From the IMG/VR virus record IMGVR_UViG_3300025270_000009, positions 37,853 to 101,852 of that record: a stretch of 64,000 nucleotides of DNA. One strand, given 5' to 3'. The DNA is from a virus. Taxonomy: Duplodnaviria > Caudoviricetes. The notes under the pieces were generated by a model. It saw nothing but the letters and a program-made list of their open reading frames with translations, was not told the origin of the DNA and ran no database searches. A program made the position numbers and the translations under genes. This document shows, piece by piece, positions 888-28,741 of this stretch. Position 1 is the first letter of the stretch. The number at the start of each line of letters is the position of its first letter.

Positions 888-3800
888 TACTTAATACCTC
901 TAATCGTTTCTCGGACCGGACCTGGCTTGCTGGCATTCTTGAGAAATACATCAATAATCATTTTCTCACCATCCAGTCGACTTCTTGATTCCGCCTTTTT
1001 CTCGTTGCCTTCGTTATATACATTCACCTGGACATCTTGCCCAACTGGTCTCTTGCTTGCAGCTTGTTCAGAATTTGTAACCGTTACCGGAATCGTTCTT
1101 CCGTCAGGTAGTGGCACGTATGCCTCTGGCATTCTTCCCTCGCCAAATAAAGCGAGTTGCGGTGAATTCGCTATTCCTCCATTGGCGTAAGCGTTAAGCG
1201 GTGCACGACCGTGATCTGTCATAATGCCACCCTTAGCGAATTTATTGGGTATAGCCGGCATATCAAAATTCATATTGCTAGCCTGACTTTGCACTCCGCC
1301 TGATATTTGACCGCCACCACCGGCTCCCCAACCAAAAGCGTTCATCATTGGTTGAATTACGTACTTCATTAAGATCATTTTTGCGATGACTTTGTTTAGC
1401 GATTTAAGGACACCTTTAGCCCAGTCATCCCATGAACCACTGCTTCCGGTTAGCATATTAGCCATAGAGTCGGCAAAGCTCTCCAGGCCATTAACCTGTA
1501 CTGACTTAATGTTTTTCTCAAAGTCTTTCCATGAATTTATCATCTGATGGAGCTCGTTTTGCTCCATCTTTTGAGCTTTAGCTAGGTCAGTATAAAGAGT
1601 TTTGGTCTTCTGAAGTCCTGTTATAATTCTCTCTTGTTGAGTGGATAGAAAACCTTTAACTCTAGCCTCTTCTTTAACTCTGGCTATAGCCTGGTCGATC
1701 ATGCCTATCTCTCGCGTGTATCTTTCGCCTGTCTCGCGTCCGACGTTATTTATCTGCTTTTGAAGCTTCTTGTTTTTGTCAGTGATAAGCTCAATGCTAT
1801 TAGCAAAATCAGCGCTGTACGCTTGCTCCTGCATATCTATTAGGTCTTGCAAGCTCACGCCCATGTCAACAAGACTTAAGCCGAGAGCGTCCGTTTCAGC
1901 CGCTACACCGGCGAATGAGCCTGACAAGTTCGAGGCGACCAGTTGAGACTTAAGCCCGGCTTTCTCCAGTCGGTCATTTATCTTCCCAAGATCCGCCTCA
2001 AAGGACTTCAGGTTTTTGTTGCTGAAAAAGTCATTGTCTAGGTTGGAAAGTGTATCTTCAGCCTTAAGACCTAAACGGTCGTACTTAACGCCTAACGTAC
2101 CAATTAAGTCGCCCGTTTTTTCGAGACCTCTTTGTGTCTTGTAAAGCTTTTCAGTATTTGCCATTTCAGCAAAGATTTTCTCAAGCTCTTCCAGAGACTC
2201 TTTCATGCGGTCGTTCTCACGGACAGATTCAGGTAGAGAGTTAACGTATGCCTGAAAAGGAGTGGCGTTTTCCATCTTAACCTGTAGCTCGTCTATATGA
2301 CCTCTTACGGTGCTAACCTTGCCCTCAACTTTTGACATATAGTTACTTAAGGTGTTTAGCGTTGGATCAACCGGCTCATCCATGTTCTGAAGACGCTCAC
2401 GTTCGTCGCCCATTCTCTCAAGCTCATCATTAAGCGCTTTGAGAACAGCTTCGTACTCTTCCTCATTCAGATCGCTTCTTCCGGCGTCGTATTCTTTTTT
2501 GAAGGTTTTAACTCGTTTTGTAAAAAGCTCCATCAAGCTTGCCTGACGCTCGATTTTTATAGCTTGAGAGGCGCCAAAAAATTCATCCTGAGTAATCTCA
2601 GAGCCGGGTGCGTTGTAAAGCTTGTTTAGCTCTTCAAGCGCCTCCGCAAAGCCGCTGCGAACCTTGTCAGTATTCGACTTGAAGTTATCCACTATTCTGC
2701 CTGACACCGACTCTGCTGAGCGCTCTATGGCAGAGTTTAAATTTGTATCGATTCTGTACTCAAGCTCTTTAATTGCTTGTTCTGCATTTGTTATGTTTTG
2801 CTCGAGCATTTCCCTGTGAGAGCCGTCCGTGTCGTACCCTTGAGTTACGCCGTTTTCAAATGTATCAAGCGCTTGCCTTGCCTTTTCAAGATTTATCTTT
2901 TCCTCTTCAAGCTGCTCCCTGGCCCTCTCTATTTCGTCCATTCCTATTAGGGCGTCCGGGTTTCTCAGAGTTTTAAGTAGGCGCTCCGTTTCTTTGTTGG
3001 CGGTTATCATTTTCTCGATATACATGATGATGCCGCTTATCGCAATGCCGCCCATTATTCCGCCGAACATTCTCATTGCGCCGCCCAGGGCTCTTTTGGC
3101 TACGGCCATTTTCTGAGTAGCCCGGCGTTGTCTTTCAATGACGGCTGCGCCCTGAGCCAACTGCTCGACATGAGCCCTTTGAGCTCTTGTAAGGGCTTGG
3201 GTTTTAGTCTTCATCGCGCCTATAGCGACCATGTGAGCTCGGTACCCTTTACTGGCAGCTGCCATGTGACGGTTGATTATGGCCTGATCTTTAATGGTCG
3301 TTTGAGACATGGCTTTCTTAGCTGCAGCCAGGCGTCTAACCGCGACAATCTGACGCTTTATTTTTTGAGTGGCAGACTGATAGCCAGACCCGACACTCTT
3401 TATGCCAGATGTCATCACGTTGAACACTTTCTTACCGGCGTACAACATGAATACGGTTTTTATAACCTCACCGTACTCATAAGCGGTCTGTGTCAGAGTA
3501 GACATTAACTTAATAACGCCTTCTAAAAACTGACCAAAGGTTCGGGCCCACTCTTTAGCCTCGCTACTCTCAAGAAACTCAAGAAACTCTCTCATTTCGC
3601 TTTTTAGAGTGTCGAAGTAACCGGCTTCATTCAACTCTTTCATTAGAATGGTGAACTGGGTTTTTATGCGTGACTTGAGACCGTCGTAGGTTGTCATCAG
3701 GGCATCGGCCGAACCTTCAGCGTCAATTATCATTTCTCTTGCCATTTCTTTCATGGCTGATTGAGCGGCAACTTTACCTTCAGAGACAAGTTTCACAAAT

Positions 3801-20276: not shown

Positions 20277-20430
20277 AGTTCAACAACATGACGACCTGTT
20301 GAGCCATTTGAATTCTCCACAATTCAGACGTATTACCAAGTCCTTTTGGTTAATTTTAAATCAGAGCCTTGCTTTGTGCACCGCGCACACTAGCTGAATG
20401 AAGCCCCTTTCGCCATGAGGGGCTTTTTTT
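20277..20430 (+). ncRNA. candidate multi-hairpin antisense sRNA (sRNA-1)
   Basis: Promoter, four small hairpins (three with anti-RBS-like loops), CCUUGCUU..GCUGAAUG boxes, terminator agcccc..ggggcttttttt. Confidence 0.7.
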
Positions 20431-21730: not shown

Positions 21731-22091
21731 TTAGCCTGTTCTATAAGGGTTTTGGCGATTGTCTAACAAGTGCATTCATTAACTTTTCTTTTTTCTGACT
21801 TCGGCAATGGGTCAAGTAACGCTTCTCTGCAGCCCTTGTCAGTTCGTTCTGAGAGTCGGGTGGTCTGGTTCAAATTTATTGGTTAAGCGCCTTAAACTGG
21901 TGCAACCAGTTCTTTTCAAAACTTTACACTTTTGTGACTGCGGCCAATGCCACGAATTGACAGCCGGCTTTGAGCTTTTTGCTATACGGGTATAAGAGTC
22001 GATAACCTGGTGAGGCGGAAATTTGCCTAATTCCGTCGACCGGGTGATTTGGCTTGCTGTTTTGATTTGGCTGCTCGGGGAATTTTAGGCG

Positions 22092-22144
22092 TTTGGGTAT
22101 AAGGGTGAGTTTTCTGGTAGGCGGAAATTTGGGTATAAGGGTGA
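22092..22144 (+). repeat. 17-bp direct repeat tttgggtataagggtga
   Basis: Copies at 22092 and 22128; GGGTATAA core also at 21988, 27922 and 28020. Confidence 0.8.
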
Positions 22145-22247
22145 ATTTTTGATTGGCAGAAAATTTTGATTCCATCGGGGTCACGGCAGCTGAAAATCTC
22201 TAGGACTTTCAGTACCCGATTAAACTCTAATCATTCAATCGTTTTAA

Positions 22248-22379
22248 TCAATTCAGCATCATAATGCTATTACAAACAACAATCCCCGAAACGATCAAGC
22301 CGACAACGGATAATAAAGCGGCTTGTTTTAGTTGTTTATTGCGCTCTCTGCGCTTGATTCTCTTACTATAACGGCTCAT
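22248..22379 (-). CDS. small membrane peptide (43 aa)
   Basis: MSRYSKRIKRRERNKQLKQAALLSVVGLIVSGIVVCNSIMMLN; GGGAG RBS; ATGA overlap. Confidence 0.65.
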   Translation of the reverse strand: MSRYSKRIKRRERNKQLKQAALLSVVGLIVSGIVVCNSIMMLN

Positions 22380-22483
22380 AAAAACGCTCCCGATGACATA
22401 TAAGCTAGAGTAAAAGCAAACGGAACACCGACAACAACGAATAAAACGAATTGAGCGGCTTTCTTAGCGGTTTCTTTAATCAT
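22376..22483 (-). CDS. small membrane peptide (35 aa)
   Basis: MIKETAKKAAQFVLFVVVGVPFAFTLAYMSSGAFL; GGAG RBS. Confidence 0.65.
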   Translation of the reverse strand: MIKETAKKAAQFVLFVVVGVPFAFTLAYMSSGAFL

Positions 22484-22503
22484 TGCGAACACTCCGACCG
22501 ATG

Positions 22504-22533
22504 AAAAGAAAGAGCGGCACAGAATGCCGCTCT
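22504..22533 (-). terminator. intrinsic terminator
   Basis: agagcggca-cagaa-tgccgctct plus U-tract on minus strand. Confidence 0.65.
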
Positions 22534-22540
22534 GTTGCTC

Positions 22541-23218
22541 TTACTTGATATTGAATGCGGCTTTAAGCGTATTAAGCTTTTTAGTGTCCGCTGTCTCAGT
22601 CTCTAAAATACCGCCCCGACCGATCCAGTTGCCGAGCCCGATAAAAGCAAGTGACTTTAAAAACTCACGGCTTTGTGTCGCTGTCTTGTTGTCAATATGC
22701 TTTTGCAGCTTATCGACCGTGATCGCTTTCTTGTCGAAATTCTCTAAACAAAAACGGATCGCTTTTTCAAAGTTCGACAATTGCGGGTTGTATGTTTGCC
22801 CGTTCGCTTGTCGGGTTGTGTTCGCTTGATGTTTCGCTTTTTTCAGTGCGTTTTCTACGGTTTCACCGTGAAGAATGAAACATAAAGCGCTCATTTTTCC
22901 GTAGTTGTTGCGCTTTGCTTGCTCTGGATTTTTAGCGTGTTGTAATACGTCCGCTACTTTACCGGCAAAAGTGTAGTAGTTGTGTTGAGTAGCGGCTCGC
23001 TGTATAGCGTCAAAGTCGGCAGCGCTTTTGTCGGTTTCACTGATTTTTTGCGCTAGAGCTTCACGCTGCTTTGCTTGCTCTGTTGCAAACTCTGCAAAGC
23101 TCGGCTTTGTCTCTTCTGCTTTTTTCGCTGTCTGTTTGCGAGTAGCGGTTTTTTTCGCTGCTGCTTTTTTAGCGGTTTCTTTTGCTTGAGTTGCTTTAGT
23201 GTTTTTACGTTCTGACAT
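22541..23218 (-). CDS. hypothetical protein with K/A-rich N-terminus (putative pre-early DNA-binding protein)
   Basis: 225 aa; histone-like N-terminus; own operator-controlled promoter. Confidence 0.75.
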   Translation of the reverse strand: MSERKNTKATQAKETAKKAAAKKTATRKQTAKKAEETKPSFAEFATEQAKQREALAQKISETDKSAADFDAIQRAATQHNYYTFAGKVADVLQHAKNPEQAKRNNYGKMSALCFILHGETVENALKKAKHQANTTRQANGQTYNPQLSNFEKAIRFCLENFDKKAITVDKLQKHIDNKTATQSREFLKSLAFIGLGNWIGRGGILETETADTKKLNTLKAAFNIK

Positions 23219-23291
23219 AATAATTACTCTCTAAGTTTGATTGATTTTAAGCTGTATCGGCTCGGCTCTTTGTGCCGTGTCGATGATTCTT

Positions 23292-23319
23292 ATATTACAA
23301 CGCTGAGATATTCGATCAA
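23292..23319 (-). promoter_or_regulatory. promoter with operator (23292-23311)
   Basis: TTGATC..TG-TAATAT; operator atattacaacgctgagatat; AT-rich upstream region. Confidence 0.7.
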
Positions 23320-23539
23320 GTGCTTTTTATAGTTTTTTTTAATAAATTTGATTGTTTGATTACTTTTTAATCATTAGTATGTTTTTTAGTCATTCAGACA
23401 ATAAATATAAAGTTTTTGATTTTTTTCTATTGTATTTCAGCTAAAGCCGTGATAGTAACGCACGCACGTTAAATAAAAGTGCGAATCCTCGATGAGAACA
23501 CTCCTTATCCTCAACCACAGCCGTCACTTCTCTATACAG

Positions 23540-23810
23540 AATTCCAAGGACAAGCCCTCTCCCCTATGCTAATACAGCCTTTCCCTAACCCTGGCACAGC
23601 TCTCCCTGGCCATTCCTGTTGTCACAGCGCCAAGGTAACCAAGGCTGTTTTCTACAAATCCAAGGAAGCTCAGGTTTGCCCACGCTAACGCAGCCTTTCC
23701 CAAGTTTTACCAGGTCAGGCACTATATAGACCAAGGCAACCTTGGAGCCGGTGTGTGCTTACCAGTGGTCGGTCTATATCCCTACGCTAACGCAGCCATT
23801 CTTAAAATTT
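23540..23810. repeat. CCAAGG / CCTAYGCTAACGCAGCC motif cluster
   Basis: Motif copies at 23563, 23679 and 23781; ccaaggcaaccttgg at 23731. Confidence 0.75.
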
Positions 23811-23830
23811 GAGAGGATTGCCTGAAAAGG

Positions 23831-24026
23831 CGTGGCCGGCCAATGATAACGAAGATAACCAAAAGGACCGGCCGGCCACGATTGCCCGAAGGCAATTAGG
23901 GTTGGAGCGCTACTGAGTAAACTGAAGTAACAAAGAGAGAATGAAACCTCAGTAACGCCCCAAAAGTGGCGAGAAGGTGTAGACTGGACAGTAGTGCAAT
24001 GTGTGGGAAACTGTCTACACCTTCTC
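23831..24026 (-). ncRNA. structured RNA: three long-loop hairpins plus cUUCGg hairpin
   Basis: 11-, 16- and 14-bp stems with 28-30-nt loops; G-U wobbles and UUCG tetraloop only on minus strand. Confidence 0.7.
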
Positions 24027-24043
24027 TGAAAGAGTGACCACCA

Positions 24044-24292
24044 TCAGGCGGTCAAACGGGAATCTTGGGTAATTTTCAGCAAACCCTCATCCCTTTCAGC
24101 AGCAAGCATGAAATCAATAGCTTCAACCAGGGCCATGCTGAAAGTAAAGTAATGCTGCTCAGTTACTTTACGCTCCTGGTTAAGCGACGTTCTTAGCCTG
24201 AATTTATCCCCGACCTGTTTGATATGAGCAACCGCCTTATCACTGATATGCAGTTGCTCGCTCTCATCGGGGGTCTGGTAGACCCGCTTCAT
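24044..24292 (-). CDS. hypothetical protein
   Basis: 82 aa, GGAG RBS. Confidence 0.7.
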   Translation of the reverse strand: MKRVYQTPDESEQLHISDKAVAHIKQVGDKFRLRTSLNQERKVTEQHYFTFSMALVEAIDFMLAAERDEGLLKITQDSRLTA

Positions 24293-24293
24293 A

Positions 24294-24611
24294 TTAAGCG
24301 ACTCCGCTCACCACAGCCTGATAGCCTGTGAGCTTAGCGTTCTTTAAGCGCTCTTTTTGTGACACGAATGTACGGCTCTTAGTCAGCCCAAACAAACGTC
24401 TCTCACGCTCTGACAAGACACTGAACGGCTTAAGTCCTTCTTCTTGAAGAAACGCATAGCGTTGCTTATCCAACGTGAATGTCGCGCCATGCGAAAAGCC
24501 GTCTGACTTTAGTTGTTGTATCTGTTGAGCCGGTGTCATTGAAAGAAGAGCTTCCATGCTGACTGACAATTCCTTTTTGCTTTCACCGTTGCCAAAGATT
24601 GCTTGTTTCAT
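24294..24611 (-). CDS. hypothetical protein
   Basis: 105 aa, preceded by conserved leader. Confidence 0.75.
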   Translation of the reverse strand: MKQAIFGNGESKKELSVSMEALLSMTPAQQIQQLKSDGFSHGATFTLDKQRYAFLQEEGLKPFSVLSERERRLFGLTKSRTFVSQKERLKNAKLTGYQAVVSGVA

Positions 24612-24627
24612 TGTAAAATTCCTTCTG

Positions 24628-24715
24628 TTGCTTGCTTGTTTGCTGAATGTTGTTGAGCGATTTGCTGTCTCGCTTCAACGGTTTCTATATTACAGTGCTG
24701 AGATAGGGGAGCAAG
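24628..24715 (-). promoter_or_regulatory. leader/operator/promoter unit
   Basis: ttgcttgtttgctgaatg; operator 24687-24706. Confidence 0.75.
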
Positions 24716-24734
24716 CGAAGTTAAGAACTTAAAT

Positions 24735-24850
24735 CCCTACGCTTTCTAGCTCTACTCCAAGGACGCCTTGGTTTATACAGAACCAGTGGACGACAGGCAT
24801 TCCTACGCTAACGCAGCCAGTCCTAAAACCTGCCTTGGCAACCTTGAACC
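24735..24850. repeat. second CCAAGG-N3-CCTTGG / CCTACGCTAACGCAGCC cluster
   Basis: Copies at 24757 and 24802. Confidence 0.75.
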
Positions 24851-24916
24851 GGGTGAGAAACAAAAAAGGGCGACCGAAGCCGCCCAAACTTGCAGTGACA
24901 AGTTAAAAGACTCTGA

Positions 24917-25165
24917 TTAACGCTCGACCTCTGCGTAAACGTCCGAATCAACGTCCTGGCCAATTTCTTTCACAATATCGGTAGGAATAGGCATCAGAAA
25001 CTGAATTTTTCGTGAAATTCCGTCTTCAAACAAAACGTTTAAATGCTCTCCACCAACATATTTAATCTCCACCGGCTCCTGAGTAAACTGCTCTAACATT
25101 CGTCCGTCCACCAGATACGGTGTGGTGGTTTTCTTCATCACGTTTTTAAGGTGTTGTAGTTTCAT
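24917..25165 (-). CDS. hypothetical protein
   Basis: 82 aa; GAGG RBS; followed by UUCG terminator 24862-24885. Confidence 0.7.
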   Translation of the reverse strand: MKLQHLKNVMKKTTTPYLVDGRMLEQFTQEPVEIKYVGGEHLNVLFEDGISRKIQFLMPIPTDIVKEIGQDVDSDVYAEVER

Positions 25166-25172
25166 TCTTACC

Positions 25173-25505
25173 TCACAGTGTTATTTCTAAAAGTTCAAAT
25201 TCGAAGCTGTTGGGTGAAATGTGGTATTCAAAACCGAAGCTATCATCCAGTGCGTTTATCTCTAATGGCTTGAACACCTCCAAAGCGTTACGAGAAAACA
25301 TTGCCTTGATGTAACCCTTAAGCGTCAGCCCTGCGTCACCCGCTTCTTCACGCCAGTCTTTCTCCAGGTTTGGAGTGTGCTTCATAAGCCTTACCATAAG
25401 CTCGGGCAACGTATCTCTGTCATCGAGATCGGCAGAAAAGGTGTGCTTGTTCTCCGCATTTTCAATGTCTATCAAAACCAGCGTCTGTTGTGATTTAAGG
25501 TTCAT
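25173..25505 (-). CDS. hypothetical protein
   Basis: 110 aa; preceded by leader and operator 25540-25559. Confidence 0.75.
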   Translation of the reverse strand: MNLKSQQTLVLIDIENAENKHTFSADLDDRDTLPELMVRLMKHTPNLEKDWREEAGDAGLTLKGYIKAMFSRNALEVFKPLEINALDDSFGFEYHISPNSFEFELLEITL

Positions 25506-25691
25506 TACTCGTTCTCTCTTGCTTGCTGAATGTGAGTGTATATTACAACACTGAAATAGGCACTCAACAGCTTATCATAAACTATTTACCTCACAGCCGG
25601 CTTGGAATAGGAATAATTGTTTAGTCATTCGCTTGAACGCCTTTGTGTCAGTGTCATAATACACACTCATTCATAAAGAGAGAGAAAAACA

Positions 25692-25943
25692 ATGTCTGAA
25701 AAAGAGCCGAATTTCCTACGTGAAATCATGCAAGTGTTTATCCCGTCTACTCACAAATTTTATGAATTGAACGAGTTTGAGGACGGGAGCTTTAAAATTA
25801 CTGAGCAAACGATTGATGAAAAAATTGTAACAATTGAAGAAGCCGACCTTGTTGACTTCTACGGCGGCAAAACAATCAACTCTTACGAGAGTAAAGAAGA
25901 AGCTGTTGAGCAATTTAAGGAGCTGACATTCTCACAAATCTAA
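25692..25943 (+). CDS. hypothetical acidic protein
   Basis: 83 aa; TTGAAC..CATAAT promoter, AGAGAG RBS, UUCG terminator 25946-25972. Confidence 0.75.
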   Translation: MSEKEPNFLREIMQVFIPSTHKFYELNEFEDGSFKITEQTIDEKIVTIEEADLVDFYGGKTINSYESKEEAVEQFKELTFSQI

Positions 25944-26039
25944 GCAAGCGGCCTTCGGGCCGTTTCTTTTTTGTCAGCCGGCACCAAGGAAGCCTTGGTA
26001 TGAGTGGATTAAACAAAAAAGCGGCCGAAGCCGCCTTTC

Positions 26040-26261
26040 TCAGTCCGTTAATACATAGCAGTGCCAATAATCTCTCAAACTCACCTCTGCAATGCTCTGA
26101 TAACTTCTCATCATGGAAAAGTAATCATCCAGGTTATAAATAACGGCTTCAGGATGCTCAACCTCAACCGGCTCTTGGGTTAAGAAACTGGTTCCATCAA
26201 GCTCTTCTGCCTGTTCAAGCGTGTATTCGCTCTTAGGGAGTAATACAATTGTTGTTGCCAT
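26040..26261 (-). CDS. hypothetical protein
   Basis: 73 aa, last gene of operon, terminator 26015-26035. Confidence 0.65.
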   Translation of the reverse strand: MATTIVLLPKSEYTLEQAEELDGTSFLTQEPVEVEHPEAVIYNLDDYFSMMRSYQSIAEVSLRDYWHCYVLTD

Positions 26262-26263
26262 AA

Positions 26264-26515
26264 CTAATCCTTACCGATATTGACGTAAGTGACCCAAACC
26301 GTATCCAGGTCAATCGCCTCATCGTTACAGTCGTCCATAAACTGCGACAGAGTCATCACCTGAATATCGCAACACAGCGTATTACCTTCTTTGTTCACCG
26401 TCTCAGCAACCGCCTGAATGCTCTCAAACGGTCTGTCCTGGATTAGTTCGGCCACAGCCCGACCATCATTCACCCGAGCGGTTGGAATCAGTACTATATG
26501 CTTCTCAGACATCAC
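26264..26515 (-). CDS. hypothetical protein
   Basis: 83 aa, coupled; similar length and C-terminal W-x-x-YV to neighbour 26040..26261. Confidence 0.65.
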   Translation of the reverse strand: MMSEKHIVLIPTARVNDGRAVAELIQDRPFESIQAVAETVNKEGNTLCCDIQVMTLSQFMDDCNDEAIDLDTVWVTYVNIGKD

Positions 26516-26774
26516 GCTTCTCCTCTCTGGCCTTCACCCAACCGTAATGGTCGGCTATCGCCCTTAAAATGTTCAAAATCTCTTCTTCGCCTTTGAAAAA
26601 TCCAAAGATCGAATTGCCATGCTTAGATTGAATGTACCCCTCTAAAGCATTCACCCGATAAAAGCTGCCCTCCGGGTATTCCTCAGACAAAAACCGCCAA
26701 AAATCTGTCTCTACCATCGGAATGTTAGACGGATTGCCAGCCTTCATTTCTTCAAGAATTTTCTCTCTGTCCAT
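26505..26774 (-). CDS. hypothetical protein
   Basis: 89 aa, coupled. Confidence 0.65.
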   Translation of the reverse strand: MDREKILEEMKAGNPSNIPMVETDFWRFLSEEYPEGSFYRVNALEGYIQSKHGNSIFGFFKGEEEILNILRAIADHYGWVKAREEKRDV

Positions 26775-26777
26775 AGC

Positions 26778-27020
26778 CTACACCGCTGATAGTTCGTAAA
26801 TAACATGACCCTCACGCTCAGCCCAATCGACTAAGTGACGAGTCACCTCTGTCCAGTTCTTAGGAGCCGGTTTATCGCTTGGCCAACCGTCTCCTGCCCA
26901 AATCTCTTCCAGCTCTTCACCGTTATTCCAGTCACCGGCGATGAGAACGTTCGAGCTCTCATCCCAGTCACCAAAACAACTGATCCGGTGGCCACGATAG
27001 GTAATGACTGTTTTACTCAT
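26778..27020 (-). CDS. hypothetical protein
   Basis: 80 aa, GGAGG RBS. Confidence 0.7.
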   Translation of the reverse strand: MSKTVITYRGHRISCFGDWDESSNVLIAGDWNNGEELEEIWAGDGWPSDKPAPKNWTEVTRHLVDWAEREGHVIYELSAV

Positions 27021-27283
27021 GACGCCTCCGGATCGAAGTTAATGAACAGGTCGGCCACACTCTCGATAGCCACCCACATTTCATCAACGGTAAAGTCCTG
27101 GTAAGACTCAGCCGGTACCAAGTCACCGAAGTCGTTTGAACCATCGGGCATTTCATAAAGGGTCTTCAATGCCTGGTCAGCGGTTACCTCGTGCTCGGCA
27201 GGATTGTCACTGTCAGACACATTGTTGAAGAATAAAAGGAGTGAGCGCTTGTTGTAGGCTTCACGTATTTCATTGGCTGTCAT
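27017..27283 (-). CDS. hypothetical acidic protein
   Basis: Start reassigned to MTANE (27283), downstream of leader and operator 27319-27338. Confidence 0.7.
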   Translation of the reverse strand: MTANEIREAYNKRSLLLFFNNVSDSDNPAEHEVTADQALKTLYEMPDGSNDFGDLVPAESYQDFTVDEMWVAIESVADLFINFDPEAS

Positions 27284-27449
27284 AATAGACTCCACTTGCT
27301 GTTGCTGAATGTGCTTATATATTACATTGCTGAGATAGGCACGCAATAGCGACCGTTTATTCATATTCCTGCATAACTATCCACTATTTAAAACAAACCC
27401 TCGGGGATTTTTCTCGAAAACTGCATACCTACCCACACAAAGTGAATAA

Positions 27450-27780
27450 AACCCAAGGATTCCACGCATAAATACCCTATACAAACCCAAACCAACCAAG
27501 GACGCCTTGGATTAAACCCGACCTGCAGGTAACAGCCGGCCAAGGACTCTACATTCCTATGCTTTCATAGCCTTTCCCAAATTCTGACAGCCAAGGCTCT
27601 CTACAAACCTATGCTAACGCAACCAGTCCTGAATTCTGCTATAACTCCCTCACTCAATGTCGTTCCAAGAGCTTCACAGGCACGAGAACACGTCTAAAAG
27701 GGAAAACCTAAGCAACCATACCACCCAAGGGCTTACAATCGCTTACAGAGCGTGTCAGGCTTCCTTGGTTCAATCCCACA
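27450..27780. repeat. third CCAAGG / CCTATGCTAACGCA cluster
   Basis: ccaaggacgccttgg at 27496; motif copies at 27556 and 27608. Confidence 0.7.
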
Positions 27781-27844
27781 AGGGCTGGCAGTTATGTTTA
27801 TCACCGACTGTTGCTCACCACCGGCTGCGTGTTACTATAAACAC

Positions 27845-27920
27845 CGTCATGAAGAGCTGATTACTCTTTTTGATTATTTTAAGCTGTATTAGCCCTGGCC
27901 TCACGGTCGGGGCTTTTTTA
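27845..27920 (+). ncRNA. candidate antisense sRNA (sRNA-3) to leader of gene 22541..23218
   Basis: TTGCTC..TACTAT promoter; 8+7+14-nt identity blocks to 23223-23257; G-U-containing terminator plus U6. Confidence 0.72.
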
Positions 27921-28741
27921 TGGGTATAAGAAAAGACAGTTGGTAAATTTTTTTTGGAAATTTTGCGAGCGCCTGGTTTCCGGCTGTTTGTGCGTGTCCT
28001 GACTGGCCTGGGATTTTTTGGGTATAAAAGTTTGAGGGTCGCGCCCAATTTTTTTGTGAGGGAGCGCGTTCAACTAAACTCGTGCCTACTCCAATCACTC
28101 ACTATCTGCCTACTCTCTCAATCTCCTCTCTATACACTCGTGCCTACTCACATCATTCTCAATCGCCTACTTTCTCATTCAACAATCAATACACTCCTAT
28201 TCTACCTACTCACGCTCTCTCCCTTCATTCTCCCAATGTACACGTTATGCCTAATCACTCTCTCTATACACGTAAGCTCTCTTCTCTCCATAAGCATGAG
28301 CTCTCCCTGTACCTGTGTGAACGTTTGTTCTTCTCCGTGTGTTTCTTTGTTTTGTTTTATCGTTAGCTCCTTTACTCCTTATGATTGTTTGTTCATCCCT
28401 CCTAATGTTCGTTGTCCGTGTGAAATGTTTTTACTTTTATCGTTAGTTCCTGTCGGTCAGAACCGTTCTCCGGCTGTTACCTTTGATTGTTTTGTATTAT
28501 TGATAGCCGAGAGTTTTTGAAATTGTTTGAGGCATTTGTGTTTTGTGTAGCCTGGGTGTTTGTTGGACTTGTTTTGTGAACGGGTTATTCCTGTGTTTTG
28601 TATAGTGAGCCGGGTGTTTGCTTGTGTTTGTGAAGGGAATGCTGTGCTGAGCTTATGAGACGCTTATTTGCTTGGTTTTGTTTTGTGTTGTGAGTCAGAA
28701 TGAGAAAAGCCGACTCTAGGCCGGCTCTGTTAGGCTCTCAA

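Follow-up and report, generated by a model that had tools for sequence, protein, structure and literature searches.

Intrinsic terminators and the stabiliser hairpins found at the 3' end of messages or between cistrons, such as the REP/BIME elements and lambda sib, are known elements of bacterial and phage operons. RNAs that use several loops for base pairing are also known, among them the c4 RNA of P1/P7, S. aureus RNAIII with its C-rich loops, and two sRNAs derived from 3' UTRs, CpxQ and SroC. RNase III sites of the T7 type are unlike stems of 11-16 bp with open loops. The untranslated regions of the T5 terminal repeat are rich in inverted repeats and palindromes (bioRxiv 10.1101/866236), and a member of the related genus Nickievirus has been reported as 'DTR (long)' (PMC11256456). 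Here, a cluster of four hairpins, three of them with loops of about 30 nt, is described in a marine phage and compared with these systems.

The cluster lies in a 101,852-bp IMG/VR virus genome from a marine metagenome, of which bases 37853-101852 were analysed as one stretch of 64,000 nt, called the window below; positions are those of the window. Nearly all genes are carried by the minus strand. Compared with their counterparts in Pseudomonas phage nickie, the capsid protein has 52% identity and the helicase 45%, and the order of the genes for terminase, ABC-type ATPase, two ParB-like proteins and a divergent helicase is that found in nickie, Nican01 and Rhizobium phage RHph_N1_10. Also encoded are Pol III alpha, DnaB, a primase, a plasmid-type replication initiator (PF10134), ParA, an H-NS-like protein and an HTH repressor. 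From these similarities, the gene order and the plasmid-type maintenance genes, the phage is assigned by sequence to the SSU5/nickie-like group of ~100-kb siphoviruses with plasmid-type maintenance genes.

Pfam screens of 29 ORFs from the first 27 kb and 43 from window positions 28.9-64 kb revealed no integrase, reverse transcriptase or transposase, and genome-wide Pfam screens no Cas gene, retron reverse transcriptase or IS-family transposase. No tRNA or tmRNA was found, and a search for a single-subunit RNA polymerase gave no match, with control genomes equally blank. Two contigs from public runs, of 87 and 95 kb, cover the window and reach 10-18 kb past the left end of the record. As they probably join both record ends, the genome would be circular or terminally redundant, and the ends of the record would not be physical ends.

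The four hairpins that the first-pass annotation had located were all recovered by an inverted-repeat search. Read on the minus strand, the stop codon of an 82-aa gene is followed at once by the outer helix of hairpin A (23965..24042), in which 24042-24037 GGUGGU pairs with 23970-23965 GCCACU over 6 bp, including two G-U pairs. Hairpin A itself, with which the array starts 18 nt after the stop, has a perfect 14-bp stem (23971-84/24013-26) and a 28-nt loop, and UUUU comes after the outer helix. It is followed by hairpin B (23902..23963, minus strand), whose 16-nt arms (23902-17/23948-63) match at 88% around a 30-nt loop that is 77% pyrimidine, and by a small cUUCGg hairpin (23881..23896, minus strand; AUUGCC-UUCG-GGCAAU) with a 6-bp stem, the 5' arm of which, AUUGCC, has an alternative partner GGCAAU at 23816-23821. 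Hairpin C (23831..23880, minus strand) has a perfect 11-bp stem (23831-41/23870-80) with 28 nt between the arms; on the minus strand, two G-U pairs and one U-A pair lengthen the stem to 14 bp and leave a loop of 22 nt. The array ends in the tail CCUUUUCAGGCAAUC (23816..23830, minus strand), which holds a U4 run 2 nt past hairpin C and the alternative pairing partner GGCAAU.

Of all parts of the array, hairpin C is the least clear-cut; its arms can also be read as a direct repeat of a palindrome. It is the sole location of the two GGCCGGCC sites of the genome, palindromes 36 nt apart, and in the alternative reading AAAAGG-N3-GGCCGGCCA occurs twice at this spacing.

The loops of the array are 65-77% pyrimidine and mostly unpaired in the predicted fold. 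Their complements had been read correctly in the first-pass annotation, and the Met-Cys-Gly start proposed there proved to be a mere reading of ATG-TGT-GGG within a loop. Sigma-70 promoters, IHF sites and small ORFs were also looked for in the loops by eye, and none fitted.

When the 233 nt from 24043 to 23811 were folded as minus-strand RNA, the energy was -93.4 kcal/mol (z -9.4), and none of 200 dinucleotide shuffles was as good; the plus strand of the same 233 nt gave -80.0 kcal/mol (z -4.6). In a sliding 120-nt scan, the excess structure was limited to about 23800-24070, with z of -4 to -6 on the minus strand and -1 to -2.7 on the plus strand. Folded alone, the single hairpins gave z of -4.3 to -6.4. 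By a rough count, chance would give the genome ~0.02 perfect 14-bp stems whose loops do not exceed 60 nt, and each further long stem within 200 nt multiplies this expectation by ~0.006. Judged by the stem lengths and by how densely hairpins occur across the genome, the probability that three such stems and the UUCG hairpin fall together within 200 nt is roughly estimated at less than 1e-5. Therefore, the cluster of hairpins is not a product of chance. No second cluster of long-loop hairpins was found in the whole 101,852-bp genome, in which each arm occurs only in its own hairpin when up to 1 mismatch is allowed. Therefore, the feature common to the hairpins is the fold, and not a repeated protein-binding site.

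The array contains six G-U pairs, two each in hairpin B, hairpin C and the outer helix, and all of them exist on the minus strand only. Full pairing of the middle stem on this strand alone, as noted in the first-pass annotation, was confirmed, the plus-strand mismatches A.C and C.A becoming U.G and G.U on the minus strand. Accordingly, hairpin B had an energy of -25.4 on the minus strand vs -15.7 on the plus strand, and hairpin C -27.6 vs -23.0. The small hairpin has a C(UUCG)G loop on the minus strand and an unremarkable CGAA on the plus strand. The minus strand is also the sense strand of the neighbouring genes. The surrounding block (~21980-28080) has three canonical terminators, at 24885-24868 (minus), 26040-26016 (minus) and 25946-25965 (plus), all with a cUUCGg loop in the transcribed sense. 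From the sequence, such loops seem to be a preference of this phage, and they would aid in calling the transcribed strand of other hairpins; the UUCG hairpin of the array, in minus sense, is in keeping with it. The array is thus most likely, as judged from predicted folds, a strand-biased structure of the RNA type. The evidence from strand asymmetry is moderate, not strong, since it comes from six wobble pairs in a single sequence, and two of the six, those of the outer helix, were chosen by the folding program.

Upstream of the array on the same strand lies a cassette of two genes. A promoter-like box, CCTATCTCAGCACTGTAATATA (24686..24707, minus strand), was read from the sequence and is common to the cassettes starting near 25560 and 27340. 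The first gene (24294..24611, minus strand) encodes an orphan protein of 105 aa with no known family and is preceded by CATTCAGCAA...AAGG, a leader found at the head of about twenty phage genes. The second gene (24044..24292, minus strand) encodes the 82-aa protein, also an orphan and helical, for which the AlphaFold model was of low confidence (pLDDT 60). Two homologues of this protein were found in databases, with 99% and 70% identity, the latter encoded on a 9.7-kb contig. The proteins neighbouring the array had no family in Pfam, PHROGs or NCBIfam.

The array is followed by the first composite repeat unit (23731..23797), which consists of a 17-mer, ACCAGTGG and CCAAGG-N3-CCTTGG and has no excess structure. 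The neighbouring cassette (25505-24917) ends in a canonical cUUCGg/U-tract terminator (24885-24868), which is followed by the same unit of 17-mer, ACCAGTGG and CCAAGG-N3-CCTTGG. When both boundaries were aligned, hairpin C, with its GC-rich 3' arm and the UUUU behind it, was found to end 27 nt ahead of the 17-mer, and the terminator arm plus UUUUUU of the neighbouring cassette 43 nt ahead of its own. In this sequence alignment, the 3' arm of hairpin C with its UUUU occupies the position of the terminator arm and UUUUUU of the neighbour. The terminator scan detected no other minus-strand terminator between 24044 and 22533. The next gene downstream encodes a protein of 225 aa and has an apparent promoter-like sequence of its own in an AT-rich stretch. 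This AT-rich spacer (23290-23376) varies in length between strains; a ~96%-identical relative carries ~410 extra letters and an 87-nt duplication there.

The repeat units belong to a wider zone. Of the 23 CCWWGG sites in the 102-kb genome, 18 fall within the 4.2 kb from 23544 to 27763, together with five copies of the 17-mer CYAYGCTAAYRCAGCC in the same orientation and four CCAAGG-N3-CCTTGG palindromes. No excess structure was found in the direct-repeat zone at 23480-23810 on either strand. Therefore, the CCWWGG and 17-mer repeats are probably DNA sites bound by protein.

The array is placed exactly where the cassette needs a 3' end, and this is the basis of the explanation that we prefer, if tentatively: that it is a sense-strand RNA block at which transcription would end or pause and by which the transcript would be protected. 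The array is most likely the 3' end of an early two-gene message. A minus-strand transcript would start from the box at 24686-24707, pass through the genes at 24611-24294 and 24292-24044, and carry the array as its untranslated 3' end, where it would stand in for the terminator of the cassette. The hairpins, two of them followed by a U4 run, would stop or slow RNA polymerase before it reached the repeat zone and the 225-aa gene with its apparent separate promoter, and would protect the upstream message against 3'-to-5' exonucleases; the open, pyrimidine-rich and G-poor loops may also load Rho. An intrinsic terminator was not detected in 23811-24043 by the terminator scan. The loops, of 28, 30 and 28 nt (22 for hairpin C after extension), exceed the 3-8 nt of such terminators, and the stems are G+C-rich but have just UUUU after the outer helix of hairpin A and after hairpin C, where about 5 or more U in 8 would be expected. 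A plain barrier role also leaves the near-equal size of the loops without explanation. None of the public RNA runs listed carried the array stretch.

The presence of the array in other samples was followed in public sequence data. It was identical in a run of a second study, was found inside a 95-kb contig of about 96% identity from a run of a third, and differed by 5 substitutions and 0 gaps over 251 nt in a further sample. The phage thus carries the array stably. In nickie and RHph_N1_10, the corresponding gaps contain single hairpins and palindromes and no comparable array. In nickie, GCCGCGGC palindromes occur in several intergenic gaps of the early zone (3486-3561, 1378, 2794), one pair being 60 nt apart, which recalls the paired GGCCGGCC of hairpin C.

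Further searches for relatives were negative. A blastn search against phage records gave no match, and nothing was found when viral contigs were scanned with the 225-aa, 105-aa and helicase proteins as single-protein queries, or when metagenome, viral and genome contigs were searched with an alignment of the 82-aa protein and its two homologues. A structure-based DNA pattern had 0 matches in metagenome contigs and the portal protein 0 in genome contigs. A 16-nt motif matched 7 loci in viral contigs, which had no similarity to the window and were set aside as chance matches. No Rfam family reached its gathering threshold, the best on the array in a permissive scan of 281 nt scoring 18.7 bits vs 66 (E 0.23), and an 8-kb Rfam scan had no match on the array.

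The structure might instead act as DNA, forming cruciforms or single-strand hairpins in replication, packaging or entry, with the block at ~21980-28080 as a terminal repeat or first-entering segment like the T5 repeat regions. We regard this as unlikely. The array does lie within the zone of 18/23 CCWWGG sites and five 17-mer copies, with an AT-rich stretch adjoining; the GGCCGGCC palindromes are confined to hairpin C, and nickie has its paired GCCGCGGC palindromes in the corresponding zone. The long direct terminal repeats reported for a Nickievirus member (PMC11256456) and the density of inverted repeats and palindromes in the untranslated regions of the T5 terminal repeat (bioRxiv 10.1101/866236) point the same way. 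However, the strand asymmetry given by the G-U pairs and the UUCG loop would be meaningless in duplex DNA, and the arms have no partner copies elsewhere, unlike the T5 IRC/IRD pairs. There are no DnaA boxes near the array either, as the consensus TTWTNCACA occurs twice in the 64-kb window (34178 and 52084) vs a shuffle expectation of 7.5 +/- 2.8. The genes for the replication initiator and for partition are more than 35 kb away and the terminase genes 9.5 kb, and the terminal repeat at the block is itself putative. The hairpins could also be real inverted repeats with no function of their own, for example remnants of recombination between cassettes. Such an origin would fit conservation seen in near-identical strains only, with no counterpart in distant relatives, but it is improbable given the roughly estimated joint chance below 1e-5, the z of -9.4, and an array kept without indels in a strain diverged by 2%.

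A different role for the RNA was also considered, in which the 3' end of ~200-230 nt would be freed as a stable regulatory or decoy RNA, its loops pairing with mRNAs of host or phage at purine-rich ribosome-binding regions, or titrating an RNA-binding protein or small RNA. This is possible, if on the unlikely side. The largely unpaired loops, 65-77% pyrimidine, would suit such pairing, and their near-equal size hints at a common constraint. The first-pass annotation had gone further and proposed a guide-like array, processed from the 3' end of an early transcript, with loops antisense to translation starts. The part of this proposal that stood is the minus-strand-specific structure that closes a short two-gene transcript, probably early and with its own promoter; the guide or antisense function did not. 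When each loop was assayed as minus-strand RNA against the -40 to +20 windows of the 137 predicted genes of the whole phage genome, the best duplexes had energies of -24.2, -25.5 and -20.3 kcal/mol, compared with average minima of -22.3, -21.3 and -22.0 for shuffled loops, and the share of shuffled loops that did as well was 0.21, 0.05 and 0.76. The loops are therefore no better than shuffles against the translation starts of the phage, so that complementarity above background, the lack of which the annotation had named as refuting it, was absent as far as the phage's own genome goes. Nor was any pairing significant, with ~30 tests allowed for, against the cassette leader, the start of the 225-aa gene, three candidate sRNAs, the other loops or the plus-strand gene at 25692. 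That gene (25692-25943; 83 aa) is the only plus-strand protein gene of the block, and the AAAGAGAGAG within its ribosome site AAAGAGAGAGAAAAACAAUG (25672-25694) is complementary over ~12 nt to CAUUCUCUCUUUG of loop B (23922-23941), a match that reaches the 5% level against shuffles, uncorrected, among those ~30 tests. An exact 13-mer, GUCCUUUUGGUUA, is common to loop C (23856-23868, in the minus-strand RNA) and a candidate sRNA at 20277-20430 (20340-20352, in the plus-strand RNA), but ~0.15 such identities are expected by chance according to our own count. The array also has neither a promoter of its own nor a strong terminator. Processing by RNase III is not suggested, because stems of 11-16 bp with open loops are unlike T7-type sites. 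The reading as a guide array is thus not supported by pairing within the phage's own genome, and host mRNAs would be its remaining candidate targets. A more specific version, in which the ~200-nt 3' end would be a stable RNA with three clamped, pyrimidine-rich platforms of 28-30 nt that act in trans, by pairing with host ribosome-binding regions or capturing a factor of the Hfq, S1 or Rho type, the 13-nt module linking it to the RNA at 20277-20430, seems to us distinctly unlikely. If the large, equal-sized loops were binding platforms, they would represent a new architecture among phage regulatory RNAs.

Compared with the systems described at the outset, the array resembles c4, CpxQ, SroC and RNAIII in that an mRNA ends in several hairpins whose pyrimidine-rich loops could base-pair with ribosome-binding regions. 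It differs from them in loops that are 3-5 times longer, with no conserved seed, no Rfam match and no above-chance target in the phage's own genome. A CRISPR array or solitary-repeat RNA was rejected, as the three stems have no common sequence and the genome-wide Pfam screens revealed no Cas gene; the flanks of the array are also without the target-site duplications of a MITE. Classic RNase III sites would have longer stems and less open loops. [quoted passage not shown] It differs from them in having no DnaA boxes, no paired distant repeat copies and no T5 homology, and its wobble pairs, confined to one strand, speak for RNA and not for DNA.

The closest likeness is to intrinsic terminators, REP/BIME elements (e.g. 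malE-malF) and lambda sib, which are, like the array, sense-strand hairpins behind a stop codon at the border of a transcription unit. As with terminators and stabiliser hairpins, short U runs follow two of its hairpins, and it stands in the terminator position of the neighbouring cassette. It departs from intrinsic terminators in loops of 22-30 nt instead of 3-8 and in U tracts of 4 U, and from REP elements, which are a repeated family, in arms that are single, with no multi-copy palindrome in the genome. If the 3'-end block that we prefer is the true reading, the ordinary job of ending and protecting a message would be done here by an unusual structure, and this would matter mainly for the annotation of transcription units in the little-known, ~100-kb marine phage-plasmid-like viruses. 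All in all, the array is a common kind of element in an unusual form.
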